Assembly: GCA_963721455.1 (NCBI GenBank)
Contig: CAVRJG010000039.1
Coordinates: 96,001-160,000, forward strand
Length of the DNA stretch: 64,000 nt
Origin: an uncultured Methanosarcinaceae archaeon
GTDB taxonomy: Archaea > Halobacteriota > Methanosarcinia > Methanosarcinales > Methanosarcinaceae
Reading direction: 5' to 3'
The position numbers were made by a program, and so were the translations under genes. Under the pieces are notes generated by a model, which searched no databases, had not been told where the DNA came from, and saw nothing but the letters and a program-made list of their open reading frames with translations. Below, one piece after another: positions 41,573 to 56,608 of this stretch (within the stretch, counting starts at the first letter, position 1; every line of letters starts with the position of its first letter).

Positions 41573-42700
41573 TCAAAACCGTTTTTTTATTGCATCCCAG
41601 AGCATTTCCATTTTTTCAAATGGTGTATTCAGAGGGATTTCACATCCTGTAGTCAGGATAAAACCTTTTTTGGAAGCTGCGTTGAGGCAGCTTTTGACCT
41701 CGTGCTCAATCTCAACCATGGAACCGACAAGAGGCGCATCCGGAATTATGTTTCCCATAAGGCAGATGCCGGCATCGGAAAATTCTTTAAATTCGTTAAA
41801 ACAGTGTCGAGAGCTGCACCCGATATTTTTATGGTTGTGAAGCTTCTTGCATTCGACTCCGTATTTATTTTCGAGAGCCCGGACATTGCCAAAGGCGAAA
41901 TTCAGCGCATTGGGCTTGAGTTTTAATTCCAGGTCATAGAAGGCCTGGGCTGCACAGTTGTGGGAAATTACATATCCCCCTCGGGCTTTTATGTGCTCAT
42001 ATAACTCCTTTGTATAGGGCAGCATGAATTCCTCTGCCATCTGCCGGCTGAAAAGGTCGCCTGTATTTTCGCCGTTTTCAACGAAAATGCCGTCAACTCC
42101 TGCCTCAAGCAAGACATCGGCAAAATAGGTGCAGCTTTCAGTAAGTTTTTCCAGCAGGGAGTGAAAATTATCTCTGTCCTTCAGCATGTCAATGCAGAGC
42201 CTGCTCCCTCCCATAACCTGGGATGCAAGCATTAGAGGAGACATAGCCGCCCCGAGGATGAAGGTTTCATCCCCTATTTCCTTTTTAAGGATTTCAACCG
42301 AGCCTGCAACACTTTTTACCCTCTCAGAACGCTCGATATCTCCGGGATTTATCTGCTCGTGCTCAGCCGCAGATTTCAAGGCATATTTTGCAACTGCAGG
42401 ATATGCATTTTCCTTGATACTCACCTTTGTTCCCAGGGCTTCAGCTTCGACAAGCAGGCAGCCCCAGGGAGACATCACATTGTCGTGGTGGTACATCTCC
42501 CTGGCAAGAATCTGAGCTTTTGCAATACCTTCTGCAGAACAATAGACATCTTTGAGACTTGCGCCCATCCTTTCCAGAACTGCATGGCCGGCTCCGAACC
42601 AAAGATAACCGTAGGGGACCCGGTCAACATCCTTTTGCTCAAGCGCGTTAATGAAACGTTCCCTTGAGGTCATTTCCGCTTCCATATTAGATATCTCCAT
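41573..42700 (-). CDS. Uroporphyrinogen decarboxylase superfamily / MtaA-CmuA-like methyltransferase
   Basis: TSRERF...DRVP, VEAEALG, HxC (SHNC), LMGNI and GFILTTGCEIP motifs. Confidence 0.85.
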   Translation of the reverse strand: MEISNMEAEMTSRERFINALEQKDVDRVPYGYLWFGAGHAVLERMGASLKDVYCSAEGIAKAQILAREMYHHDNVMSPWGCLLVEAEALGTKVSIKENAYPAVAKYALKSAAEHEQINPGDIERSERVKSVAGSVEILKKEIGDETFILGAAMSPLMLASQVMGGSRLCIDMLKDRDNFHSLLEKLTESCTYFADVLLEAGVDGIFVENGENTGDLFSRQMAEEFMLPYTKELYEHIKARGGYVISHNCAAQAFYDLELKLKPNALNFAFGNVRALENKYGVECKKLHNHKNIGCSSRHCFNEFKEFSDAGICLMGNIIPDAPLVGSMVEIEHEVKSCLNAASKKGFILTTGCEIPLNTPFEKMEMLWDAIKKRF

Positions 42701-43133
42701 TTTTAAGCTTCCAGAGATTAATATAAAAGTAGTTGTATAAATACTGGCCAGAATAAAGGCTGAAAAAATTTCATTTTATTCTAAAAACTGCTCAAGCTAA
42801 AGTAAAATAATGTAAATAAAAAAGATGTAAGGGAAGAAAATTCTTCAACTACCCACTGTAACTCTGGAGAGGAATACTACGATCCTGCATTATCTGAATT
42901 CACCAGGCATCAGATAGCGGCTTTTGCACAAAGGCCGATACATGATAATAGGCTTGTACGGCTAAATAATGCAGGCGTGCTTGCATCAGACGAGTGAAAG
43001 TACCTCGTTAGGAATGTAGACTTTGCCTGTTATCGGAGCGTAGACAACTATGCCTTTGAGCTCATGAGTTGAGCCATCCTTGATAAAGCGTGCTAGAAGG
43101 ATTAAAAAAGTAAAATACAGTAGACGCACATCA

Positions 43134-43303
43134 AAAGAAGAGTAAGAAAAGTCCGGAAGCTCTATGTTCCTTTTACCGTAGCCCCCGATACAGTCGCTCT
43201 GAAAATACACTCCCCCAAGCGTATTAATTCAGAAAAGGACAAAGGGCTTCCGAGCAATTCTTCACTTACTATTCATACCTTACTCACTCGCTCTGTCCAC
43301 TCC
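43134..43303 (-). ncRNA. Putative structured sRNA, copy 1
   Basis: Closing stem CGGAAGC/GCTTCCG, inner TCCTTTT/AAAAGGA, hairpins AATACGCT-TGGGGG-AGTGTATT and ACTGTA-TCGGGGGC-TACGGT, U-rich tail. Confidence 0.65.
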
Positions 43304-43429
43304 AAATTACAATATAGAATTATCCCTGTAATTATTTTAAATTAATTATATCAAAAATTAGTTTCGAACGAAAAATGCTTTCGCATAAAAAGTTTTAAAA
43401 CCGAAATATAATTTCATACTAAATCAATT

Positions 43430-43469
43430 TTTAGCGTTACGCTGGACTTATTTAGCGTTACGCTGGACT
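43430..43469. repeat. 21-bp tandem duplication of a short hairpin
   Basis: TTTAGCGTTACGCTGGACT x2. Confidence 0.8.
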
Positions 43470-43794
43470 CAACGGAGCTTAAAAAAGAGCTACGGTAAAG
43501 AGGTTGATAGGGGATTAGTTTCAGCTTGCGATATGGTTGAAACTTTCAATAGGAATATATAAGGACGATTTCAGTTCTTCGAAGCCTTAACGAGACTTAG
43601 AAAAGAACTAAACAACATGACTCAAAAATAAAATTTGAAACCATAAAGCGAAAACATAACAAAAAAATAGCCTATTAGAAATCACAGCAAAAGAGTTTAG
43701 CAGGAAATAAAAAGAATAAGAAGAAGATATGCAGGAAATAAAAAGAATAAGAAGAAGATATAAAGGTTAGAAGAAATGAAGGTTACTAAAAGAT

Positions 43795-43966
43795 GGTAAA
43801 GACAGTATGAATATACCCAGAGGCACTGTATCCTTTGACTTTATCCCCCAATAAAGCCTCTCCGAAATTATGCTCCCCCAAGCATATTGGTCCGAAGAAG
43901 GATCAGCGACCCCCAGAAAATTCTCTTATTTATTGTGGTAAATACCCCATCTAACTTCCCAACTCC
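43795..43966 (-). ncRNA. Putative structured sRNA, copy 2
   Basis: CGCTGATCCTT/AAGGATACAGTG stem; hairpins TATGCTT-GGGG-GAGCATA and GGCTTTATT-GGGG-GATAAAGTC. Confidence 0.65.
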
Positions 43967-44305
43967 AGAATATACTAATAACATAAATTATTTTAAATTA
44001 ATTATACAAAATATTCTATTTAAGCAAAAAATAATTCGGCGTAAAAAATTTCAATGCCACCATAGAGTCAAATTCAGAGCCTGCGTTTTAGCTGAGAAAA
44101 AAAGATTTTATACCAGGCCCGGAGTAAAACAGAAGTTTCGTCGCAGATAAAAAGAATTCTGTGGCAGATAACAAATATGAGATAAATAGCAGAACCACGC
44201 AAATAAATCATGGAATAAGAACAGAAAAACAGTATCTTTTTTCAAAAAATCCGAAGATAATAAATAAGAATAAAAAGGAAATCATTTAAAAACATGTGAA
44301 AACTC

Positions 44306-44477
44306 AGTAAGAAGAAGCCCGAGAGCAGTTTAGTCCCTTTGCCGTATCCCCCAACACAGCCGCTCCAACGATATGTTCCCATCCAAATATCGTAAAGCAA
44401 GGATCAGGTAGCTCCCGGGCAATTCTGTCACAACCCGCTACTTTGCTATTCAATCATACCCTGTCTCTTCCAGCTCC
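44306..44477 (-). ncRNA. Putative structured sRNA, copy 3
   Basis: GCCCGGGAGC/GCTCTCGGGC closing stem; hairpins ACGATAT-TTGGATGGGAAC-ATATCGT and GCTGTGTT-GGGG-GATACGGC; U-rich tail. Confidence 0.65.
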
Positions 44478-44695
44478 AGAATATAGTAAGAGAATAAATT
44501 ATTTTAAATTAATTATACAAAAAATTGCCTACAAACAAAAAATAGTTCCATGCAAAATATTTCAAAGCCAGAAAAGAACTGTAGGTAGAAATACATGCAG
44601 AAGTCAAATCTGACCGGGAAATTAAGACAAAAAGTCCCGGGCTGGCACAAAAATTAAGTACATGAATTAATCTATAAGTAAAAGCCTTAATATGC

Positions 44696-44768
44696 AGTCC
44701 TGTAGGGTAGTGGTCAATCCTTCGGGCCTTTGGAGCCCGGGACAGCGGTTCGAATCCGCTCAGGACTA
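44696..44768 (+). tRNA. tRNA-Gln(TTG)
   Basis: AGTCCTG...CAGGACTA; anticodon arm CGGGC-CTTTGGA-GCCCG; GGTTCGAATCC T-arm. Confidence 0.97.
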
Positions 44769-45099
44769 TAAAAATATTTTTAATAATTCTAAGTAATTGA
44801 TGTTTTTATTACTGTTTTTCAAACTCTTTTATTTACGCCTATTCACAAAGTGTTAGCTGAAGCAAAAAAATGTTTTTGACGTAAAATTAATCCAACTTAA
44901 TACCAATAATGCGCAAGATAGAGTTTGAGCCTTTTGATAGTTGGCCTATGATAGAATTACCAATTTTTTTGATTACTTCCTGGACTGGTTTATGGGAATC
45001 TCATGGCTTCATAGATTGCTTCCCTTTTGCTCCAGGTTCATGGTTTTTAACTCATTTTAAGCTCTTTCAAACTCTGGTTTCGTCGTTGAGTCATTGATT

Positions 45100-45285
45100 T
45101 ATTATTAGATCTGTAAATGCTATTACTTTTTGGGAAGGGGTTGAAATCACTTTCGAAATGAAGTTTTTACAGTTTTTTCTCCAGGACCAGATGCAGTAAC
45201 CCCTGCGGTAGCGGTAGAAAATTCAAACGTTGTCACGACCATCAAAAAGGAGGACTGGAAGGGAGAAATCGGAAGTAGAGTATAA
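45100..45285 (+). pseudogene. Gene fragment duplicated with the peptide cassette (second copy at about 46230-46440)
   Basis: VNAITFWEGVEITFE...SPGPDAVTPAVAVENSNVVTTIKKEDWK vs VNSITFREGVETTFE...SPGPDAITPAPEVAVENSNAVTAIVKEDRK; coding strand uncertain. Confidence 0.5.
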
Positions 45286-45389
45286 ACAGGGACAGGACTC
45301 TGCCACGACATATAGATCGGTTTTAGGAAATAAATGAGAAAGTGGGAAAATTGGAAGGTAAGATAAAGACACCTACCTCTCAACAATCA

Positions 45390-45617
45390 TCAGCGACCCC
45401 GATCGTCACTGTCACAATTGCCCCGATCTTTCCAGTTACAACCGCCACCATCTTTACTATGTCCATCTCCACCAGATCCATCTCCACCAGATCCATCTCC
45501 ACCAGGTCCATCTCCACCATCAACGACTCTTGCTGATGCAGTTGTCAGAGATACTACAAAAAAGACAACCAGTAAAATGACCAGCGTCTTTTTTATTATA
45601 GATGTTTGTTCCCCCAT
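45390..45617 (-). CDS. Secreted Gly/Asp-rich peptide, paralog A
   Basis: Signal KKTLVILLVVFFVVSLTTASA; GGDGS repeats; Cys/Trp tail; shared promoter and terminator. Confidence 0.8.
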   Translation of the reverse strand: MGEQTSIIKKTLVILLVVFFVVSLTTASARVVDGGDGPGGDGSGGDGSGGDGHSKDGGGCNWKDRGNCDSDDRGR

Positions 45618-46553
45618 TTGTCTACACCCCTAACTTTTGTTAAAATTGATACAATTCAAAACTATTGTTTAATAACACTTTTCGCAGGCAGAAGCCTTTA
45701 GTAAATATTATTTAACCAATTATATTATTTAATCGATTATATTATTTCACCAATTAGTCATCCAGATTTATTTCTTGAAGAGTATATTGGTCATTCTTTC
45801 TTGATTTTATGTCTGATATATTATGTGCCTATGAAAGCGATTTCAAATTGTACCATTACGAGATTATCATTGATGGAATATAATATTAATTGGATTATGA
45901 ATACGAAACCAATAAATATTAGTCTGAAATAATCGTGTCAAATTGCCGTAGATATACTTCAGTAATGATATTTACCACAATTAATTCTCATTTTTCATAT
46001 AACTTTACAAAAATATCACTCAATTGCCAAGAATTGCAATAGACTCAAAGTTCATATCGACTTAGATAATATAAAGTTCAGTAAATCGGGAAATATATAT
46101 TGAGCCTATCCCAAAAGCCACTTTATTCTTAATCATTGGGAATTTTCAGAATTTTTTTCATGATCTTGAGCTTGATTGATTATTCGAAATACAAGGCCCA
46201 AGAAGCAAATTTCAAGTTTTGGGATGAACTCTATACCTGTAAATTCTATTACTTTTAGGGAAGGGGTTGAGACCACTTTCGAAAAAGAGATTTCACAGTT
46301 TTTTTCTCCAGGACCGGACGCAATAACCCCTGCCCCTGAGGTAGCGGTCGAAAATTCAAACGCTGTCACAGCCATCGTAAAGGAGGACCGGAAGAGAGAA
46401 ATCAGAAGTAAAGACCACACCGGGTTCAGCTACGGCCTATAGATCGATTTTATGAAAGAAATAAGTAGGAAAAAGTAGGAAATTAGTAGGAAAGCGAGAA
46501 AGTAGGATGAAGAAATCTGTGTTATGAAAGGAATAAAGTAGGAAAGTGAGAAA

Positions 46554-46573
46554 GTAGGATGAAGACATCCTAC
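46554..46573 (-). terminator. Hairpin plus pyrimidine tract downstream of each peptide gene (also 47596-47615, 49439-49458, degenerate at about 45356-45376)
   Basis: GTAGGATG-TCTT-CATCCTAC followed by TTTCTC on the minus strand. Confidence 0.75.
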
Positions 46574-46583
46574 CTCTCAACAA

Positions 46584-46987
46584 TTACCACCAGTCACATC
46601 TGTCCCAGCAGCCCCAATCGTTCAAGCCACAGCCACAGCCGCCATAGCCGCCCCAGTTGCCCAGGCCCCAGCCGCCATAGCCGCCCCAGTAGCCGCCCCA
46701 GCCGCCATAGCCACCACGGTGTCCTCCACCGTATCCACCACGGTGTCCTTTAAATCCTCCACCGTATCCACCGCGGTGTCTCCTCCACCGTATCCACCTT
46801 GGTGTGATCCACCGCCACCGTATCCACCGTGTGATCCACCGCCACCGTGTCCCATCTGATGTCCACCGCCACCGCCACGGCCACCGCCACGGCCACCGCC
46901 AGGAGCGGCGCTTACTGCCGCAGCTGTCACAGATACTACAAAACAGACAACTAGTAAAATAGCCAGTGTCTTTCTAAGTTTCCCCAT
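46584..46987 (-). CDS. Secreted Gly/Tyr/His/Trp-rich peptide, paralog B (1-nt frameshift near 46780)
   Basis: Signal MGKLRKTLAILLVVCFVVSVTAAAVSA; after the shift the frame reads HRGGYGGG...GGYGGWGGYWGG...GGCGCGLNDWGCWDRCDWW*. Confidence 0.8.
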
Positions 46988-47625
46988 TTGTCTACACTCC
47001 TAACTTTTGTTCAAATTGATACAATTCAAAGTGTTTTATAATCACTTTTCACAGGCAGATACATTGAGTAAAGATTATTTCACCAATTAGTCATTCAGAT
47101 TTATTTTTTGAAGAATTCCTTGAAGAAAATGTTATTGATACCTTCTATCTTCACTTATGTCCGATGTATATGCCTATGAAAGCGATTTCAAATTGTATCA
47201 ATATAAGATAATAATTCAAAGAATATAATATATACCGAATTATAGATAAGGAAATAATATATACTGAATTATACATCAGAACCAATAAATATGATTGTGA
47301 CCCATTAGCTGGCTGAGATTTTATTTTTTGAGTGTAGGTTATTCACCTGCACCTGTTTTCTAAGCTTATTTGCTTACGAGAAATTGAAACATATAATGTG
47401 AAAGAATGAGACTCGGAAAGCAAGTAGGGGAATATACTAGGGAAAAAATAGCAACTTATTATTAATGGACCGCCAATAAATATTAAAATCTGAATAATCA
47501 TGTAATCTGTTTTATGAAAGGAATAAAGTAGGAAAGCGAGAAATTAGGATGAAGAAATCTGTTTTATGAAAGGAATAAAATAGGGAAGTGAGAAAGTAGG
47601 ATGAAGACATCCTACCTCTCAACAA

Positions 47626-47916
47626 TCAACACCAGTTACAGCCCAAGTTACAGCCACAACTGCGGTCCCAGCAACCACTGCCACAGCCGCCCCAGCCGCC
47701 CCAGCCCCAGTTGCCGCCCCAGCCGCCCCAGTTGCCGCCCCAGCCGCCCCAGTTGCCGCCCCAGCCGCCACCGTGTCCGCCGTGCCGCCGCCAGCCGCCG
47801 CCGCCCCAGCCGCCACCGCCTCCATGTCCGCCGCGTGCGTCTACTGCCGTAACTGTCAATGACATTACAAACAAAACAACTAGCAAAATAGCCAGTGTCT
47901 TTTTCAGTCTACCCAT
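47626..47916 (-). CDS. Secreted Gly/Trp-rich peptide with Cys-rich tail, paralog C (intact)
   Basis: RBS GGGAGTG; MGRLKKTLAILLVVLFVMSLTVTAVDA/RGGHGG...(GGNWGGW)n...GGCGSGCWDRSCGCNLGCNWC*. Confidence 0.88.
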   Translation of the reverse strand: MGRLKKTLAILLVVLFVMSLTVTAVDARGGHGGGGGWGGGGWRRHGGHGGGWGGNWGGWGGNWGGWGGNWGWGGWGGCGSGCWDRSCGCNLGCNWC

Positions 47917-47942
47917 ATATCTACACTCCCTATTTTTGTTCA

Positions 47943-47985
47943 AATTGATACAATTCAAAACTATTGTTTTATAATCACTTTTCGC
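47943..47985 (-). promoter_or_regulatory. BRE/TATA promoter plus palindromic operator conserved upstream of all four peptide genes
   Basis: GCGAAAAGTGATTATAAAA on the minus strand; AATTG-ATA-CAATT palindrome at 45644, 47014, 47943 and 49774. Confidence 0.7.
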
Positions 47986-48469
47986 AGTTCACAGGCAGAT
48001 GCATTGAGTAGATATAATTTCACCAATTAGTCATCCATATTTACTTATTGAAGAATTTCTTGAAGGGAACATTATTTCAAGAGAATGCTATTGGTACATT
48101 CTATCTCCACTCTATGTCCGATGTATATGCCTGTGAAAGCGATTTCAAATTGTACCACTATAGAATCATCATTTATGGAATATAATATAAACAGAATTAT
48201 AAATAAGAAACCAATAAATATCAAAGTCTGAAATAATCCTGTCATTTTCCCGCAGATAGAGCTCAGTAATGAGATTTATCACAATCAATTCTCACTTTTT
48301 ACATAACTCCACAAAAATACCACTTGCGTACCCAAAATTGCAAAGCTCAAAGTTCATATCGACTTAAATAGTATAAAACTGGGTAAATCGGAAAATATTT
48401 ATTAATAATGTGTAGGTTTTACGAAGCCTTGACTCTTTTTCATTAAGCAGGTGATTTATCTCAATTCCA

Positions 48470-48599
48470 TAGGACTTACGCAGTTGGACTGAAAAACCAG
48501 TAGCTTGAGACTTCAAGTGATTCAAATCATAATATAAATCAAAATATATATGACAGATCTGCTCGTGTACTATGTTACCCCTCAGGTGCGTAAGCCCTA
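48470..48599. mobile_element. MITE with terminal inverted repeats (second copy 50323-50436)
   Basis: TAGGACTTACGCA...TGCGTAAGCCCTA; about 130 bp, no ORF; near-identical interior in both copies. Confidence 0.75.
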
Positions 48600-49150
48600 C
48601 GAATCAAAAACCTATTTCCTGAAGGCAGGATACAAAAGATCGTTTCTGACGAAGATAAAGCAATCATTGGAGCTGTAAAGAGTGTCTTCCCTGAAGTGGC
48701 TTATTCCTTTTGTGTATTTCACCAATTAAAAAACGTTAGCAAGAGGTATAGTGATGAATTCAACTCTATCACAAATATTCCAGATAATGATGAGCTTGTG
48801 TACAATGAGATGTCAATTAATACGCTCTGATACGGTCATCAGTGCTGTTGTATGTTTTCAAAAGATACGAGAATTGGATTCTAATCTGGAACTTTCAAAA
48901 GCGTCTCATAAAGCGATTTCTTATGCAAAAGAGATTTTCACGAAAAATGTAAGCTTTTTGAAAAAAGGGTTTACACCTGAGACAGATAAAATACAATGGA
49001 ACAGATATTTTCTTTGATAAGTGATGTTGTAGACAAAGCAAGATCATTCAAAACTGATAGTGGTCTAACTAATTTTTGTTACAATTTGTTTACTTATTTA
49101 ACAAACGGTGTTTCCACACTGGAAAATGGAGATGATTCTCACCCTTAATG
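48600..49150 (+). pseudogene. DDE transposase fragment (IS256/ISH6-like)
   Basis: KIVSDEDKAIIGAVKSVFPEVAYSFCVFHQLKN (D...FP...CxxH) followed by frameshifted ...FTPET...MEQIFS...ARSFKT. Confidence 0.75.
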
Positions 49151-49468
49151 AGGGTAAGATTCCAATATGGATAAAGGTAAAAGGAAAAAAGTAAACCTTC
49201 AATCTAAACTGAAATTCCTATAGCGGTAGCTAATGGAAATTTCCACAAAAAATAGGGTGCCTAGTAAAAAATTGTATAAGTTCTTGCATGATTGAATCAA
49301 CTTTTCCAAAATGAGTAGATTGGTTCACTCCAAATTATGATGAAATTTCATGATTTTTTCGAAATTGAAGAAGAACCAGAAAAATAAAAAAGACTCGTAG
49401 ATATGTATTATGAAATAAATAAATGGAAAAGTAAGAAAGTAGGATGAAGACACCCTACCTCTCAAAAA

Positions 49469-49745
49469 TCACCACCATGTGCCACAACAGCCACAACGGT
49501 GGTCCCAGCAATCACAGCCGCAGCTGCGCCAGCCGCCCCAGTTGCCGCCCCAGCCCCAGTTGCCGCCCCAGTGGCCGCCCCAGCCGCCACCGTGACCCCA
49601 GCCGCCGCCGCCGTGTTCCACCGCCGCCGCCGCCGTGTTTCCAGCCGCCGCCACCATGTGGGCGGGCGTCTACTGCCGCAACTGTCAATGACATTACAAA
49701 CATGACAGCTAGTAAAATAGCCAGTGTCTTTTTCAGTTTAACCAT
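49469..49745 (-). CDS. Secreted Gly/His/Trp-rich peptide with Cys-rich tail, paralog D (frameshift near 49620)
   Basis: MVKLKKTLAILLAVMFVMSLTVAAVDA/RPHGGGGWKHGGGG + HGGGGWGHGGGWGGHWGGNWGWGGNWGGWRSCGCDCWDHRCGCCGTWW*. Confidence 0.8.
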
Positions 49746-50607
49746 ATATATCTACACTCCCAACTTTTGTTCAAATTGATACAATTCAAAGCTATTGTTT
49801 GATAATCACTTTTCGCAGGCAGATGCATTGAGTAACAGGCAGATACATTGAGTAAATATTATTTCACCAATTAGTCATCAATTAGTCGTCCAGATTTATT
49901 TCTTGAAGAGAATGTTATTGGTACATTCTGTTTTCACTTTATGCCCGATGCATTATGTGCCTATGAAAGCGATTTCAAACTGTATCACTTTGGTATCACT
50001 TTGATACACTTTGATATCATCATTCATCGAATATAATATCAACAGAATTATAAATAAGAAACTAATAAATATTGAGGTCTGAAATAATCTTGTCATTTTC
50101 CCGCAGATATAGCTCAGTAATGAGATTTATCACAATCAATTCTCACTTTTTACATAACTCCACAAAAATACCACTTGCTTACCCAAAATTGCAATGAGCT
50201 CAAAGTTCATATCGACTTGAATAGTATAAAACTGGATAAATCGGAAAATATATATTAGTAATGTGTTGTATTTAAGAAGCCCTGACTCTTTTTCATTAAG
50301 CAGGTTATTTATCTCAATTCCATAGGACTACACAGTTGGACTGAAAAACCAGTAGTTCGAGACTTCAAGTGATCCAAATCATAATATATGACAGATCTGC
50401 TCGTGTTCTGTGTTGCTCCTCAGGTGCGTAAGCCCTGCCAGGGACCTAAATCGTCAACATCCCAATTACAGCCTGAACTAATCGTTCAATCACCAATCAA
50501 TAGCAGTCACAGCCGTTCCAGCCGTGCCCGAGGAAGAAACCGCTCAGGACTATAATCTAATTTTTACATAATCCAGTTGAAATTGCCTATTGGTTTAAAA
50601 AAGGAAT

Positions 50608-51399
50608 TTATTTTTTTACTTCGACCAGATCTTTTCGCATTTTTCTTTTCAGTATCTGTTCAGAGATCCAGCCAATAGCATTGTAAACAGGATTTACCGG
50701 TACATCCACATAATATTTTGCTCCGGGACTGAGCCAGCCCTTTTCTTTCCAGTATGCGTAATCAGCAGGGGAGCTCTCGCCAAGTTCGCCAAAACTTGCC
50801 TTCTGGCCATGAAAAATTAATACATCCCGAAGCCCTGGCGGGAGGCGTTCTTTCTGGAGGGCATTGTAAAATACAAATGCAGCTTTCTCAAGTTTCCGGT
50901 CATTCTCCTGCTCTTTCTTCCTGGAAATTTGCATTGGAGGAGTTACGATGCCAACGCGGGAAGATACTTCAAAACCCCATACACCAGCCACTAATTTGAG
51001 GTAATCGAAAACTTTCTCAAGACCCAGCGCGCCTGTGGTAGAGAGGAGAAGGGCTTTTTTATCGAAAAAACGGGGACGGTGAAAGATATAAGAGAACCGG
51101 TCAATGAACGTTTTCATAAGTGCAGAAACATTCATACCATAAACAGGTGTAGCAAAGATCACCCCATCGGCAGCATGCATTTTCTGCTCGATAACAGGGG
51201 CATCGTCTTTACATGGACAATGATCCTCCCCTTTTACAAAACAGACAAAGCAGCCACGACACTGCAATAAATTCGCATCTTTGAGCATCAGGTATTCGAA
51301 TTCAACATTACCCTTAGACTGCATGAACTCTTCTATTTTCTTCGCCGCTCGATAAGTATTACCTTTTCGAGGACTTCCCATGATAACCAGGATTCTCAT
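50608..51399 (-). CDS. Flavodoxin-like NADPH-dependent FMN reductase / iron-sulfur flavoprotein family
   Basis: GSPRKGNT, CRGCFVC...C, ATPVY and KTFIDR motifs. Confidence 0.9.
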   Translation of the reverse strand: MRILVIMGSPRKGNTYRAAKKIEEFMQSKGNVEFEYLMLKDANLLQCRGCFVCFVKGEDHCPCKDDAPVIEQKMHAADGVIFATPVYGMNVSALMKTFIDRFSYIFHRPRFFDKKALLLSTTGALGLEKVFDYLKLVAGVWGFEVSSRVGIVTPPMQISRKKEQENDRKLEKAAFVFYNALQKERLPPGLRDVLIFHGQKASFGELGESSPADYAYWKEKGWLSPGAKYYVDVPVNPVYNAIGWISEQILKRKMRKDLVEVKK

Positions 51400-54435: not shown

Positions 54436-55689
54436 CTACCTGGATCCTGCTTTAATACTCTTCAGGATTTCCGTTAATCCGGGTCTTTTCCCGTACATCA
54501 GCAGGTAAGCCCTGAAAAGCCGGCTGGAAAGCAAGATCACTCCATGAACCGAAACAAACAGAATGAAGATGCTGGCAAGAACCTGGTATGCAGGCACTGC
54601 TGTTGCCCCCATCCTGGCAAGCATGGCTACGGGAGAAGTGAGAGGGAAGAGGGAAAGAAAAACTGAAAGCGAGCTGTCGGGGTTTGTCAGGATCAGTTGC
54701 ATGAATATAAGGGGAGATACGGCTGCAAACGTGAAAATTCCTGCAACCTGCTGGCTTTCCTGAAGGGAGCTGGTCACTGCCCCTATTCCTGCCATCATGC
54801 TGGCAAAGAAGAGGAAGCCAAGCAGGAAATAAATAAGAGCAAGGAAAAGGAGCATGGGCTCAATTTTAATGGGAAGGGCGTACCCGCTCCCGACAGTTAT
54901 TACCGCGAGCCAGAAAACAATCTGCAGAAGGCCGACTGCGCCAAGTCCCAGGATCTTGCCTGTAAGAAGTTCGGAAGGGGTTACGGAAGAAAGTAAAACC
55001 TCTATTATCCTGTTCTCTTTCTCTTCGGCAACACCGCGAAGGAGATAACCCGAAGCCGAGAAAATACTGAAGAAAAGAAGAAAAGCTGTGAGAATGGGAA
55101 GGCCAAGGTTGGCAAGGATTTCGGCAATGCCCTGCTCAGAGAGTTCTCCGCTCTCTCCTATATTATAAAGTTTTATATTAACCGGATCTTTGACCCTGTT
55201 GAGAACCGACTCATCCACTCTGTCTTTAAGGAGGGAAGTGATGACAATATCCGAGAGTTCGGCAGACAGTTCAATTCTTGGAACAGGTGACCCTTTTTCA
55301 AAGGTATAGAGTTCTATTGTTCCGGCTTCAAGAAAGTCTTCAGGAATTACGAGATAAGAAGAAATCTGTCCCGCCTGTAAGGCCTGCCTTGCGTCAGAGG
55401 CCCCCCCGTACATTATAAAAGATATGATTGAAGTTTCTGCCGCAAAAGATCCTGCAGAAAGGCCTTCACTTCTGATAGACTCTGGAAATCCGAAGGAGCC
55501 AGTCATATCAACATAGCCTATATTCTGGTCTTCGGCAGGGATCATGCCTGCAAGTATTGTCGGAAAAATAGTAATCGCCGTAAGGAAAAGAGGGAAAATG
55601 AAGGTCATAAGAAGGAATTCTTTACGCTTTATGGTTTTCAGGAACTCGTGCCTGGCAATAATAAAGATTTTTCCGGAAAAACTACTCAT
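54436..55689 (-). CDS. ABC-2 type permease (NatB-like)
   Basis: IARHEF, VAEEKENRIIEVLLSS, LLTGKILG and PLTSPVAM motifs. Confidence 0.92.
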   Translation of the reverse strand: MSSFSGKIFIIARHEFLKTIKRKEFLLMTFIFPLFLTAITIFPTILAGMIPAEDQNIGYVDMTGSFGFPESIRSEGLSAGSFAAETSIISFIMYGGASDARQALQAGQISSYLVIPEDFLEAGTIELYTFEKGSPVPRIELSAELSDIVITSLLKDRVDESVLNRVKDPVNIKLYNIGESGELSEQGIAEILANLGLPILTAFLLFFSIFSASGYLLRGVAEEKENRIIEVLLSSVTPSELLTGKILGLGAVGLLQIVFWLAVITVGSGYALPIKIEPMLLFLALIYFLLGFLFFASMMAGIGAVTSSLQESQQVAGIFTFAAVSPLIFMQLILTNPDSSLSVFLSLFPLTSPVAMLARMGATAVPAYQVLASIFILFVSVHGVILLSSRLFRAYLLMYGKRPGLTEILKSIKAGSR

Positions 55690-56608
55690 TTGCGGCACTC
55701 TCCACAGTTTCAATAAAAATTTCGTTCAGAGAGGGAAGTGCCTGCTCAAAACGCAGAATATTTGCCCTCCGGACAAGCTCCTCAAGAAGAATCTGTGTGC
55801 TTACGCCTTCCTCAGGAAAGATTTCAACGGATTTTTCATATTCTGTTATTTTTCTTATGCCGGAAATCTCCCGAATTGCATTCAAACCCTCTTTTTCTAC
55901 GAATTCCACAATAAGAGAGTTTTTCCCATGCTCTCTCCGGATCTCATCCACAGTGCCGTAAAGTACTCTCCTGCCTTTATTCAGCATAAGAATCCTGTCG
56001 CAGAGTGTCTGGGCCTGTTCCATCATGTGCGTGGAGAGGACTACTGTCTTTCCTGAGTTTCTGAGTTCCAGAATTCTGGCCTTAACTGTTTTTGTACTTA
56101 GAGGGTCAAGGCCAGAAAAGGGTTCGTCAAGAATCACAAGTTCAGGGTCATGGATAATAGCAGAAAGGAACTGAATCTGCTGCTGCATTCCTTTGGAGAG
56201 TTCTTCCACTTTTTTACTTCTATGTTCATATAACTCCACAGATTTAAGAAGGGATTCGGCGTTTAATTGAGCCTGTTTTTCAGGCATTCCTTTAAGCTGT
56301 GCCAGATAGACCAGCATATCCAGAAGCTTTATTTTCCTGTATAATCCCCTTTCCTCAGGGAGATATCCTATCCGGTCTTTTGCAGGCGAGCTAAGAAGAG
56401 CTCCAAAAACGCGTATTTCCCCGACATCCGGCCTGATAATATCAAGAAGAAGCCTGATAAGCGTGGTCTTTCCTGCCCCGTTTGGCCCGAGGAGCCCGAA
56501 GATCTCACCCTGCCTCACTGAAAACGAAATATCTCCGATAATATCCTTTTCTGCGAAAGACTTCGATACGCTTTCAAATTCCACAGTATGCATCCAGATT
56601 AAATACAT
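55682..56608 (-). CDS. ABC transporter ATP-binding protein (NatA-like)
   Basis: GPNGAGKTT, GYLPEERGLY, LSKGMQQ and LDEPFSGLDP motifs. Confidence 0.95.
   Translation of the reverse strand: MYLIWMHTVEFESVSKSFAEKDIIGDISFSVRQGEIFGLLGPNGAGKTTLIRLLLDIIRPDVGEIRVFGALLSSPAKDRIGYLPEERGLYRKIKLLDMLVYLAQLKGMPEKQAQLNAESLLKSVELYEHRSKKVEELSKGMQQQIQFLSAIIHDPELVILDEPFSGLDPLSTKTVKARILELRNSGKTVVLSTHMMEQAQTLCDRILMLNKGRRVLYGTVDEIRREHGKNSLIVEFVEKEGLNAIREISGIRKITEYEKSVEIFPEEGVSTQILLEELVRRANILRFEQALPSLNEIFIETVESAANE

Follow-up and report, generated by a model that had tools for sequence, protein, structure and literature searches.

A tandem islet of small Gly-rich protein genes with a shared export-type leader peptide and a candidate structured RNA leader in a Methanosarcinaceae archaeon

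The sulfur globule proteins SgpA/B/C of purple sulfur bacteria are Gly/aromatic repeat proteins. They are small, carry export signals and form a coat outside the cytoplasm (PMC10386293). We describe here an islet of four tandem small genes, A to D, all on the minus strand of a 64,000-nt window of contig CAVRJG010000039.1 (GCA_963721455.1) from an uncultured Methanosarcinaceae archaeon; all coordinates are positions in this window. The predicted products consist of a common signal-peptide-like leader followed by Gly-rich repeats of differing kinds, and each gene is preceded by a candidate cis-regulatory RNA. In design, the sulfur globule envelope proteins may be their closest prokaryotic analogue, by what is a weak analogy. 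A cluster named ‘sulfur globule protein family’ is the rank-3 feature-space neighbour of protein C in the ESM Atlas (0.83, which is also the top score there), a weak lead, as shuffled proteins reach this range. SgpA/B/C are unlike the islet proteins in being bacterial, in being Tyr-rich rather than Trp-rich and in having no Cys tail, and the likeness is one for which no sequence homology is shown. We know of no sulfur globules in Methanosarcina.

Eukaryotes possess Gly-rich antimicrobial and cell-wall proteins such as the shepherins, plant glycine-rich proteins (GRPs), the nematode NLP/CNC peptides, acanthoscurrin and armadillidin, the last reportedly an example of a Gly-rich antimicrobial peptide. 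These share with the islet proteins a signal peptide followed by GGH/GGY/GGW-type repeats, small size and a multigene organisation, a compositional likeness; they differ in being mostly cationic and in having neither a common leader nor an RNA leader. In cone-snail toxin superfamilies and frog skin peptide precursors, a near-invariant signal is joined to a hypervariable mature part, and these families undergo tandem duplication and rapid turnover. The near-invariant signal, the unalignable mature regions, the tandem duplication and the fast turnover recur in the family to which the islet belongs; however, the animal families have a propeptide and folded or amphipathic products, whereas the islet family is archaeal, with low-complexity products and a structured 5′ RNA leader. 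Finally, the microcin B17-type precursors of ribosomally synthesized and post-translationally modified peptides (RiPPs) have a Gly- and Cys-rich C-terminal stretch like that of the islet proteins, but their leader is not an export signal and their maturase genes are adjoining, neither of which is true for the islet.

Four tandem genes and their common leader peptide

By inspection, the N-termini of the four products share a KK n-region and a hydrophobic stretch of 18-19 residues, after which V-D-A, V-S-A or A-S-A is found. Written out, the leaders read KK, then TLAILLVV.FV.SLT, then a small-x-small site (VDA↓R, VSA↓A, ASA↓R). A hidden Markov model (HMM) built from the four genes and run against all six-frame open reading frames (ORFs) of the genome returned them at E = 2.6e-13 to 2.6e-16, and the similarity among the leaders is far above chance. 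The features of Sec-type substrates of signal peptidase I, namely a basic n-region, a hydrophobic h-region and small residues at -3/-1, are all present. In its build the leader is a Sec-type signal peptide, and export and cleavage are predicted.

No RR with a twin-arginine translocation (Tat) consensus was found in the n-regions, which have KK or RK. A lipobox is lacking in A-D, where R or A instead of Cys occupies position +1; some paralogs elsewhere do have Cys at this position (VSA↓C, ASA↓C). The leaders do not resemble the double-glycine leaders of class II bacteriocins, as they are hydrophobic and end in A-x-A, and the islet contains no C39 exporter. Archaeosortase substrates of the PGF-CTERM / PEF-CTERM kind were likewise not recognised among A-D, which gave no NCBIfam match of this type and the C-termini of which (…CDWW, …CNWC, …GTWW, …DDRGR) are without a hydrophobic stretch. 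The mature parts contain no hydrophobic core. For C alone, AlphaFold2 modelled a helix at residues 3-28 with a predicted local distance difference test score (pLDDT) of 83-92, falling below 50 beyond it. The sole sequence match in the PDB, obtained with a D-like protein as query, was the signal peptide of an antigen-binding fragment (Fab) expression construct, and this match was weak (E = 0.45).

Gene A (45390..45617, minus strand) is intact and encodes 75 residues, with the signal peptide, an acidic core of GGDG(S/P) repeats and two Cys near the end. Its mature part of ~46 residues is 37% Gly, with an isoelectric point (pI) of 4.4 and one His. A near-identical, intact relative in public data (P0009, 80 residues) has one additional repeat unit. 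Gene C (47626..47916, minus strand) is intact as well and encodes 96 residues from MGRLKK, comprising the signal peptide, a GGH/GGW/GGNW core and a six-Cys tail; the mature part of ~69 residues is 51% Gly and has 12 Trp, 6 Cys and a pI of 8.7.

The frames of genes B and D are broken. The first part of B (46781..46987, minus strand, 69 codons) is in the frame of the start codon and encodes the signal peptide and GGGR/GGGGH/GGYGG repeats. Two bases (46779-46780) separate it from the second part (46584..46778, minus strand, 64 codons plus stop), which lies in another frame and encodes HRGGYGGG and GGW/GGY repeats and a tail with four Cys and the C-terminus …GCWDRCDWW; the stop codon is at 46584-46586. 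Both parts pooled are 54% Gly, with 8 Trp, 8 Tyr, 7 His and 4 Cys. The break in B is a frameshift or an assembly error, and a B-like gene of another species (L032:1406-1810) is intact with 135 residues. In D, the first part (49620..49745, minus strand, 42 codons) encodes the signal peptide and PHGGGGWKHGGGGG. Four bases further on, the second part (49469..49615, minus strand, 48 codons plus stop) continues in a different frame with HGGGGW/HGGGW/GGNW repeats and a tail of six Cys that ends in WW, the stop codon being at 49469-49471. A D-like protein in public data (P0002) is intact with 92 residues and is 42% Gly, with 12 Trp, 7 His and 6 Cys.

Sequencing runs were consulted as contigs only; none held more than 28% of the sampled words, and stretches left uncovered carry no meaning. 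Contigs of two runs differ from the assembly by +2 or -4 bases at 49613-49616, and each of these variants unites the two parts of D in one frame. In metagenome contigs covering gene C, the listed indels are +3, -3, -3 and -63 bases, every one in frame, which is the behaviour expected of a translated repeat. A programmed frameshift in B and D was considered and is disfavoured by the intact A-like, B-like and D-like relatives together with the frame-restoring variants of D. The frameshifts may instead be strain-specific mutations or consensus errors in the assembly of a mixed population.

The tails of B, C and D thus hold 4-6 Cys with CxC spacing, plus CC in D. HGGGW and HGGGGW (PHGGGGW) units occur in C and D, and the mature parts of C and of D-like proteins are mildly cationic (pI 8.4-8.7). 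An earlier note, made on the DNA letters of this stretch, had reported four paralogs with a signal-peptide-like leader, and the HMM scores and Sec-type build bear this out. Its description of four different cores and of Cys/Trp tails also holds, although the note was silent on the frameshift that precedes the tails of B and D. It was right, too, in regarding the Ala-rich and Pro-rich ORFs of the islet as shadow frames; they run across the GGC/GGT repeats that code for the Gly-rich cores. Its statement that no modifying enzyme, transporter or immunity gene lies in the islet agrees with the finding that no ORF of at least 150 residues is present between 42700 and 50608.

Contigs that match gene A are present in two RNA libraries (45381-45608, 3 differences; 45496-45646, no difference), and RNA-library contigs also lie over parts of the leaders of A (45632-45785) and C (47914-48131). 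Such contigs give neither strand, ends nor level of transcripts. Transcription of the islet genes is plausible.

A candidate RNA leader ahead of the genes

Upstream of the coding regions, ~300 nt are conserved among A-D and five other members in the same genome that have wholly different mature parts. RNAalifold folded this region into three nested long-range helices and a hairpin. From a trimmed alignment of 26 sequences, a covariance model (R1; 186 positions, 28 pairs) was built. On the minus strand of the window it matched unit A at 45645..45856 (120.3 bits, E = 4.3e-20), unit B at 47015..47201 (147.8 bits, E = 2.4e-25), unit C at 47944..48158 (143.1 bits), where the nested long-range helices P1-P3 and one hairpin are seen, and unit D at 49775..49988 (150.2 bits, E = 8.3e-26). 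The element ends 27-29 nt ahead of every start codon in the window, the distance being 27 nt in unit A.

The proposed pairing was compared with controls in 36 distinct sequences. Standard pairs made up 86.4% of cells, vs 27-51% when the partners were slid by 1-3 columns. Of the 28 pairs, 20 had changed on both sides, amounting to 54 cells vs at most 22 in the slid controls, and none of 500 shuffles matched any of the observed pairing or covariation measures. G-U pairs (96) exceeded A-C pairs (49), which favours the sense strand. For the leader of C taken alone, the minimum free energy (MFE) fold reproduces P1-P3 (z = -3.17), and 0/200 shuffles fold as well.

In the same genome R1 gave 11 strong matches, the copies outside the islet being at loci L105, L109-L112, L114 and L115, and 9 of the 18 leader-peptide genes, or about half of the family there, carry the element. 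Among the collected loci 38 matches were obtained. Of 24 other genomes of the genus, 22 have it (1-12 copies each), as do 0/16 genomes outside the genus. Cross-tabulation of the seven genomes covered by both searches showed a leader-peptide match at most 80 nt downstream on the same strand for 31/40 RNA matches. A search of the whole window with Rfam 15 yielded just three tRNAs at the gathering score and no leader family; with permissive filters, no match to the leaders better than E = 0.76 was obtained in 45300-50500. We therefore propose the ~190-nt leader, to which the earlier note makes no reference, as a new candidate cis-regulatory RNA, the three nested helices of which are backed by covariation.

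A promoter-like block (48179..48215, minus strand; TTATTTATAAT ... ATTATATT) forms invariant columns in the alignment of the nine upstream regions. The invariant TATA-like octamer ATTATATT starts 28 nt upstream of P1 in unit C. Because this spacing fits the usual archaeal distance from TATA box to transcription start, the octamer is the putative promoter element from which the transcript would begin at the foot of the RNA structure. The gene module has the order promoter-like block, ~190-nt structured leader, GGAG ribosome-binding site, near-invariant 26-residue leader peptide and hypervariable, low-complexity mature part.

In other genomes of the genus, the RNA leader and signal peptide module was also observed ahead of open frames of 423-609 codons (G006:C8:1011741-1012061, G012:C52:183689-183975, G017:C14:112315-112601 and G006:C1:242388-242688), some of the 31 pairings above included, so the module is not limited to small proteins.

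The family in the genus and the surroundings of the islet

The islet had been taken for an array of four. Four genes are indeed present at this place, but the number understates the family: in the same genome, 16 leader-bearing ORFs were detected with the four-gene HMM at E <= 0.01 and 18 with a broader 26-residue profile. The latter found matches in 12/13 other genomes of the genus (1-20 copies each), in 0/40 genomes that represent seven further genera of its family and in 0/107 genomes of the other families of the order. A search with protein C gave matches in 31/36 genomes of the same genus (0-53 per genome) and in 1/24 outside it. The relatives are scattered singly across many contigs, at dozens of unlinked sites. 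A-D are a local cluster of a multigene family limited to one genus, most likely Methanosarcina.

We fetched 100 loci, picked from the matches, and found 112 distinct leader-bearing ORFs in them, a number that is a catalogue and not a rate. When 1.84 billion cluster representatives were searched exhaustively with the profile, 322 proteins at E <= 0.001 were returned, with lengths of 39-183 residues among the 150 of these that were listed. A word-indexed protein search found 5 relatives, a figure that says nothing on rarity given the 322 of the exhaustive search. In an exact look-up of ten proteins in a collection of 15 billion, the two that had been taken from that collection were recovered. 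The other eight, translated from related loci, had no exact copy there, from which we conclude that genes of the family are often uncalled or called with other starts.

The earlier note had allowed for an already characterised family; none was found in Pfam, NCBIfam or the literature. Pfam-A returned no family at E <= 1 for A, B (frame of the N-terminal part), C or the tail of D, and NCBIfam produced for A-D just two chance-level rows, both for B, at 13 bits vs cut-offs of 78 and 420. The literature search gave no account of the family or of its RNA leader, including in the accessible parts of PMC9425974, PMC11456600 and PMC4158269; supplementary tables of small ORFs from Methanosarcina mazei ribosome profiling (Ribo-seq) were not covered. 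The family is undescribed in the curated databases and the literature searched, and largely invisible to annotation.

Behind the common leader, the mature parts of paralogs within the same genome are mutually unrelated, with GY/K-rich sequences, KKWDNE repeats, (GCGNDCNW)n, DRDRVM repeats and CRDW repeats. The combination of a conserved leader with a hypervariable core, noted before for the four genes, is real and holds for a genus-wide family whose copy numbers are very uneven. A second cluster in the same genome, on contig C21 at ~41.3-49.8 kb (L102, L010, L011, L012), consists of four members that share this RNA leader and signal peptide. Of their products, one is of the (GCGNDCNW)n type and three have DRDRVM-type repeats, one of those three with a GCGGFGGC tail. 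In 98 mature parts, Gly reaches 19-29% (vs 7% in the background), Trp 4-5% (vs 1%) and His ~4.5% (vs 2%), Leu, Ile and Val are depleted, and the net charge ranges from -18 to +18. The mature parts of the group with the RNA leader contain 5.0% Cys (vs 1.5%) and 10.7% Asp (vs 5.0%). Two or more Cys in the last 30 residues are present in 22/35 Gly-rich members vs 10/59 others. The CWD[RH] tail, which the earlier note suggested searching for across archaea, proved to be local: a CWD-like motif occurs in only 3/35 Gly-rich members, a count that includes the out-of-frame readings of B and D. The more widespread feature is a Cys-bearing aromatic C-terminal module, seen in 22/35 of these members.

At the DNA level, A-D are copies of a ~1 kb unit that includes the flanks (73-80% identity over 0.4-1.1 kb). 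Units C and D are 80% identical across 1.1 kb, and units A and B are 73-77% identical to C and D. Past the stop codon of C lies a conserved 3′ block (47578..47634, minus strand; direct-repeat family D8) with a hairpin containing GC (GGTAGGATG-TCTTC-ATCCTAC) and then a T-rich stretch. Further copies are at 46536-46592 and 49421-49477, and the block is probably a terminator, as its build suggests.

Several elements interrupt the unit. A truncated insertion-sequence copy outside the family (48596..49396, plus strand) lies between units C and D and is 80-88% identical to six other genomic sites; at those sites the sequence makes up the 3′ part of an ORF of ~360 residues. Two dispersed repeats resembling miniature inverted-repeat transposable elements (MITEs) are inserted in the array, one of ~135 nt (46091-46235) with more than 30 genome copies and one of ~175 nt (47292-47490) with about eight. 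Behind A and B, a duplicated fragment of ~240 nt (45111-45350 and 46237-46473) runs on the strand opposite to the peptide genes. Over ~150 nt it matches, with 81-89% identity, a radical-SAM/SPASM sulfatase-maturase gene at its 3′ end together with the spacer that follows; on contigs C28 and C26 of the same genome, that gene adjoins a sulfatase gene. The fragments are remnants only, with no intact gene.

A small hydrophobic ORF upstream of the units (e.g. 48072-48245) was considered as an immunity gene and rejected: it is closed in unit A, its ends differ in B, C and D, and it starts upstream of the TATA-like box in AT-rich DNA. The genes flanking the islet encode a URO-D family protein, a CitMHS transporter, an FMN reductase and a PAS/GAF sensor. 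An ABC-2 permease without a peptidase domain match (54436-55713) is 4.6 kb away. Within the 42700-50608 stretch a tRNA-Gln gene is found at 44696-44768. Upstream of it are three copies of an intergenic repeat of ~110-300 nt (43126-43431, 43796-44059, 44456-44570), with related copies on at least eight other contigs.

Possible roles of the proteins

In our view A-D are best read as exported, self-associating, metal-bridged envelope or matrix material, a proposal to which we give somewhat less than an even chance. According to this model, the proteins would leave the cell by the Sec route and be cleaved by signal peptidase I, and their mature parts would stay disordered outside the membrane, acting as material and not as enzymes or processed peptides. 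Between Gly spacers, Trp, Tyr, His and Arg would serve as ‘stickers’ that adhere to each other and to the envelope or matrix; structural proteins that self-associate have this composition, which is why we propose self-association. Metal ions or metal-sulfide surfaces would be bound by the Cys/His/Asp-rich tails, as the CxC/CC tails and HGGGW units also suggest. In a strongly reducing, sulfidic habitat, disulfides between external Cys would be unlikely and contacts with metal or metal sulfide more likely. The common RNA leader may switch its subfamily on and off together in response to some signal, and repeat slippage and tandem duplication could generate the diversity of the cores. Methanosarcina, the probable genus, is known for the formation of aggregates and matrix, and the restriction of the family to such a genus fits an envelope or matrix role.

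Several points weigh against this proposal. Export, cleavage, disorder, self-association and metal binding are all predictions from sequence. The AlphaFold2 model was obtained from a single sequence, so its low confidence would be only weak evidence of disorder, and the hydrophobic stretch of the leader is long enough to serve as an uncleaved membrane anchor. B and D are broken in this assembly. As regards expression and control, contigs of one RNA library are also present at 49999-50149, a stretch that lies upstream of the promoter predicted for D, which makes DNA carry-over possible; covariation was counted in an alignment fitted to the model, some of its sequences had served to derive the structure, and the sequences are paralogs or kin. 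Moreover, antimicrobial activity is common among the Gly-rich peptides that animals and plants secrete.

A metal-binding role and that of a self-assembling matrix, both among those suggested earlier, fit the composition of the proteins. The former could be served without building any material, by soluble peptides that buffer or scavenge Ni, Co, Cu, Zn or Fe for supply or detoxification, under the S-layer or in the medium, with the RNA leader as a metal-responsive switch. Methanogens require much Ni and Co. In the mature parts, His, Cys and Asp are 2- to 3-fold enriched, the CxC tails of B, C and D (in D also CC) are metallothionein-like, and simple His-rich repeats of the (D/G)HGGYG, HHGGHG and HDFDHH kinds make up many relatives. 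The HGGGW/HGGGGW units of C and D resemble the copper-binding octarepeat of the prion protein, PHGGGWGQ, and a sub-threshold Rfam match to RF00523, the prion pseudoknot family, was recorded inside gene D (49580-49613, minus strand; E = 0.0029, 33.2 bits vs a gathering score of 39). This match, however, reflects a nucleotide likeness of the repeat and not a common function, and the resemblance to the octarepeat would be one of convergent repeats only, with no homology. Product A is acidic with its one His, many members (KKWDNE, DGYK and DRDRVM repeats) are poor in classical ligand residues, and the adjoining genes include no metal transporter or regulator. We regard soluble metal buffering as unlikely.

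An antimicrobial function, with archaeocin-like Gly-rich peptides that diversify in an arms race against competitors, appears more doubtful still. A signal peptide joined to a Gly/aromatic/His-rich peptide is the build of arthropod, nematode and plant Gly-rich antimicrobials, the mild positive charge of C and D-like mature parts is in keeping with this, and so is the hypervariable copy number between genomes. The spread of charge across the family and the low pI of A nevertheless weaken the idea, which the earlier note had entertained. The islet contains no immunity, export or processing gene and none recurs in the neighbourhoods of the relatives, the members are scattered singly, and their composition overlaps that of structural Gly/aromatic proteins at least as well.

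A reading of the islet as a repeat-rich intergenic desert in which duplicated low-complexity genes linger with hardly any function left, B and D being pseudogenes, is very improbable. The frameshifts in B and D, the truncated insertion sequence, the two kinds of short dispersed repeats and the gene fragments would suit such decaying or neutral loci, as would the wide variation in copy number between species. A and C, however, are intact, intact A-like and D-like proteins exist elsewhere, variants from other samples unite the parts of D, and the listed indels of C are multiples of three. The frameshifts themselves may be consensus errors of a mixed-strain assembly. In addition, conservation across species extends to the leader peptide and the ribosome-binding site as well as to the 190-nt RNA structure, with compensatory changes in the last.

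Of the roles proposed earlier, that of RiPP precursors, with Gly/Cys cores modified in the microcin B17 or radical-SAM manner by enzymes encoded elsewhere, is the least likely and strongly disfavoured, for although the tails are Gly/Cys-rich and the ~240-nt fragments resemble a maturase gene, the leader has the form of a classical export signal and not of a recognition leader, no intact maturase, protease or transporter is present within the 8 kb of the islet, the pieces that resemble a maturase are short remnants and lie on the other strand, no partner gene recurs at the dozens of unlinked sites where relatives occur, and a Cys, Ser or Thr pattern is missing from the cores of most paralogs that share the leader.

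Returning to the proposal of an exported, metal-bridged material, a more far-reaching version can be put forward as a speculation that we think improbable. In this version the ~190-nt leader would be a new archaeal riboswitch-like sensor, for example of a metal ion or of a redox or sulfide-related signal, governing a regulon of exported, disordered proteins rich in His, Cys and Trp. In the envelope and aggregate matrix these would form a tunable extracellular ‘sponge’ by which metals and metal-sulfide particles are captured or buffered, or a wiring of cells to them. If true, this would be a genus-specific invention tied to the aggregate-forming, mineral-interacting life of Methanosarcina.

Methanosarcina species are among the most versatile methane producers; unusually, they form multicellular aggregates and interact with minerals and with partner bacteria. 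With as many as dozens of exported low-complexity proteins in one genome, a family restricted to one genus could plausibly be a component still missing from the picture of their envelope or matrix, or of their trace-metal economy. To our knowledge, very few structured cis-regulatory RNAs are known in archaea; the RNA leader would join these and would offer a direct experimental handle on what the family responds to. The locus also illustrates how tandem duplication and repeat slippage may create protein diversity behind a fixed module for export and control.

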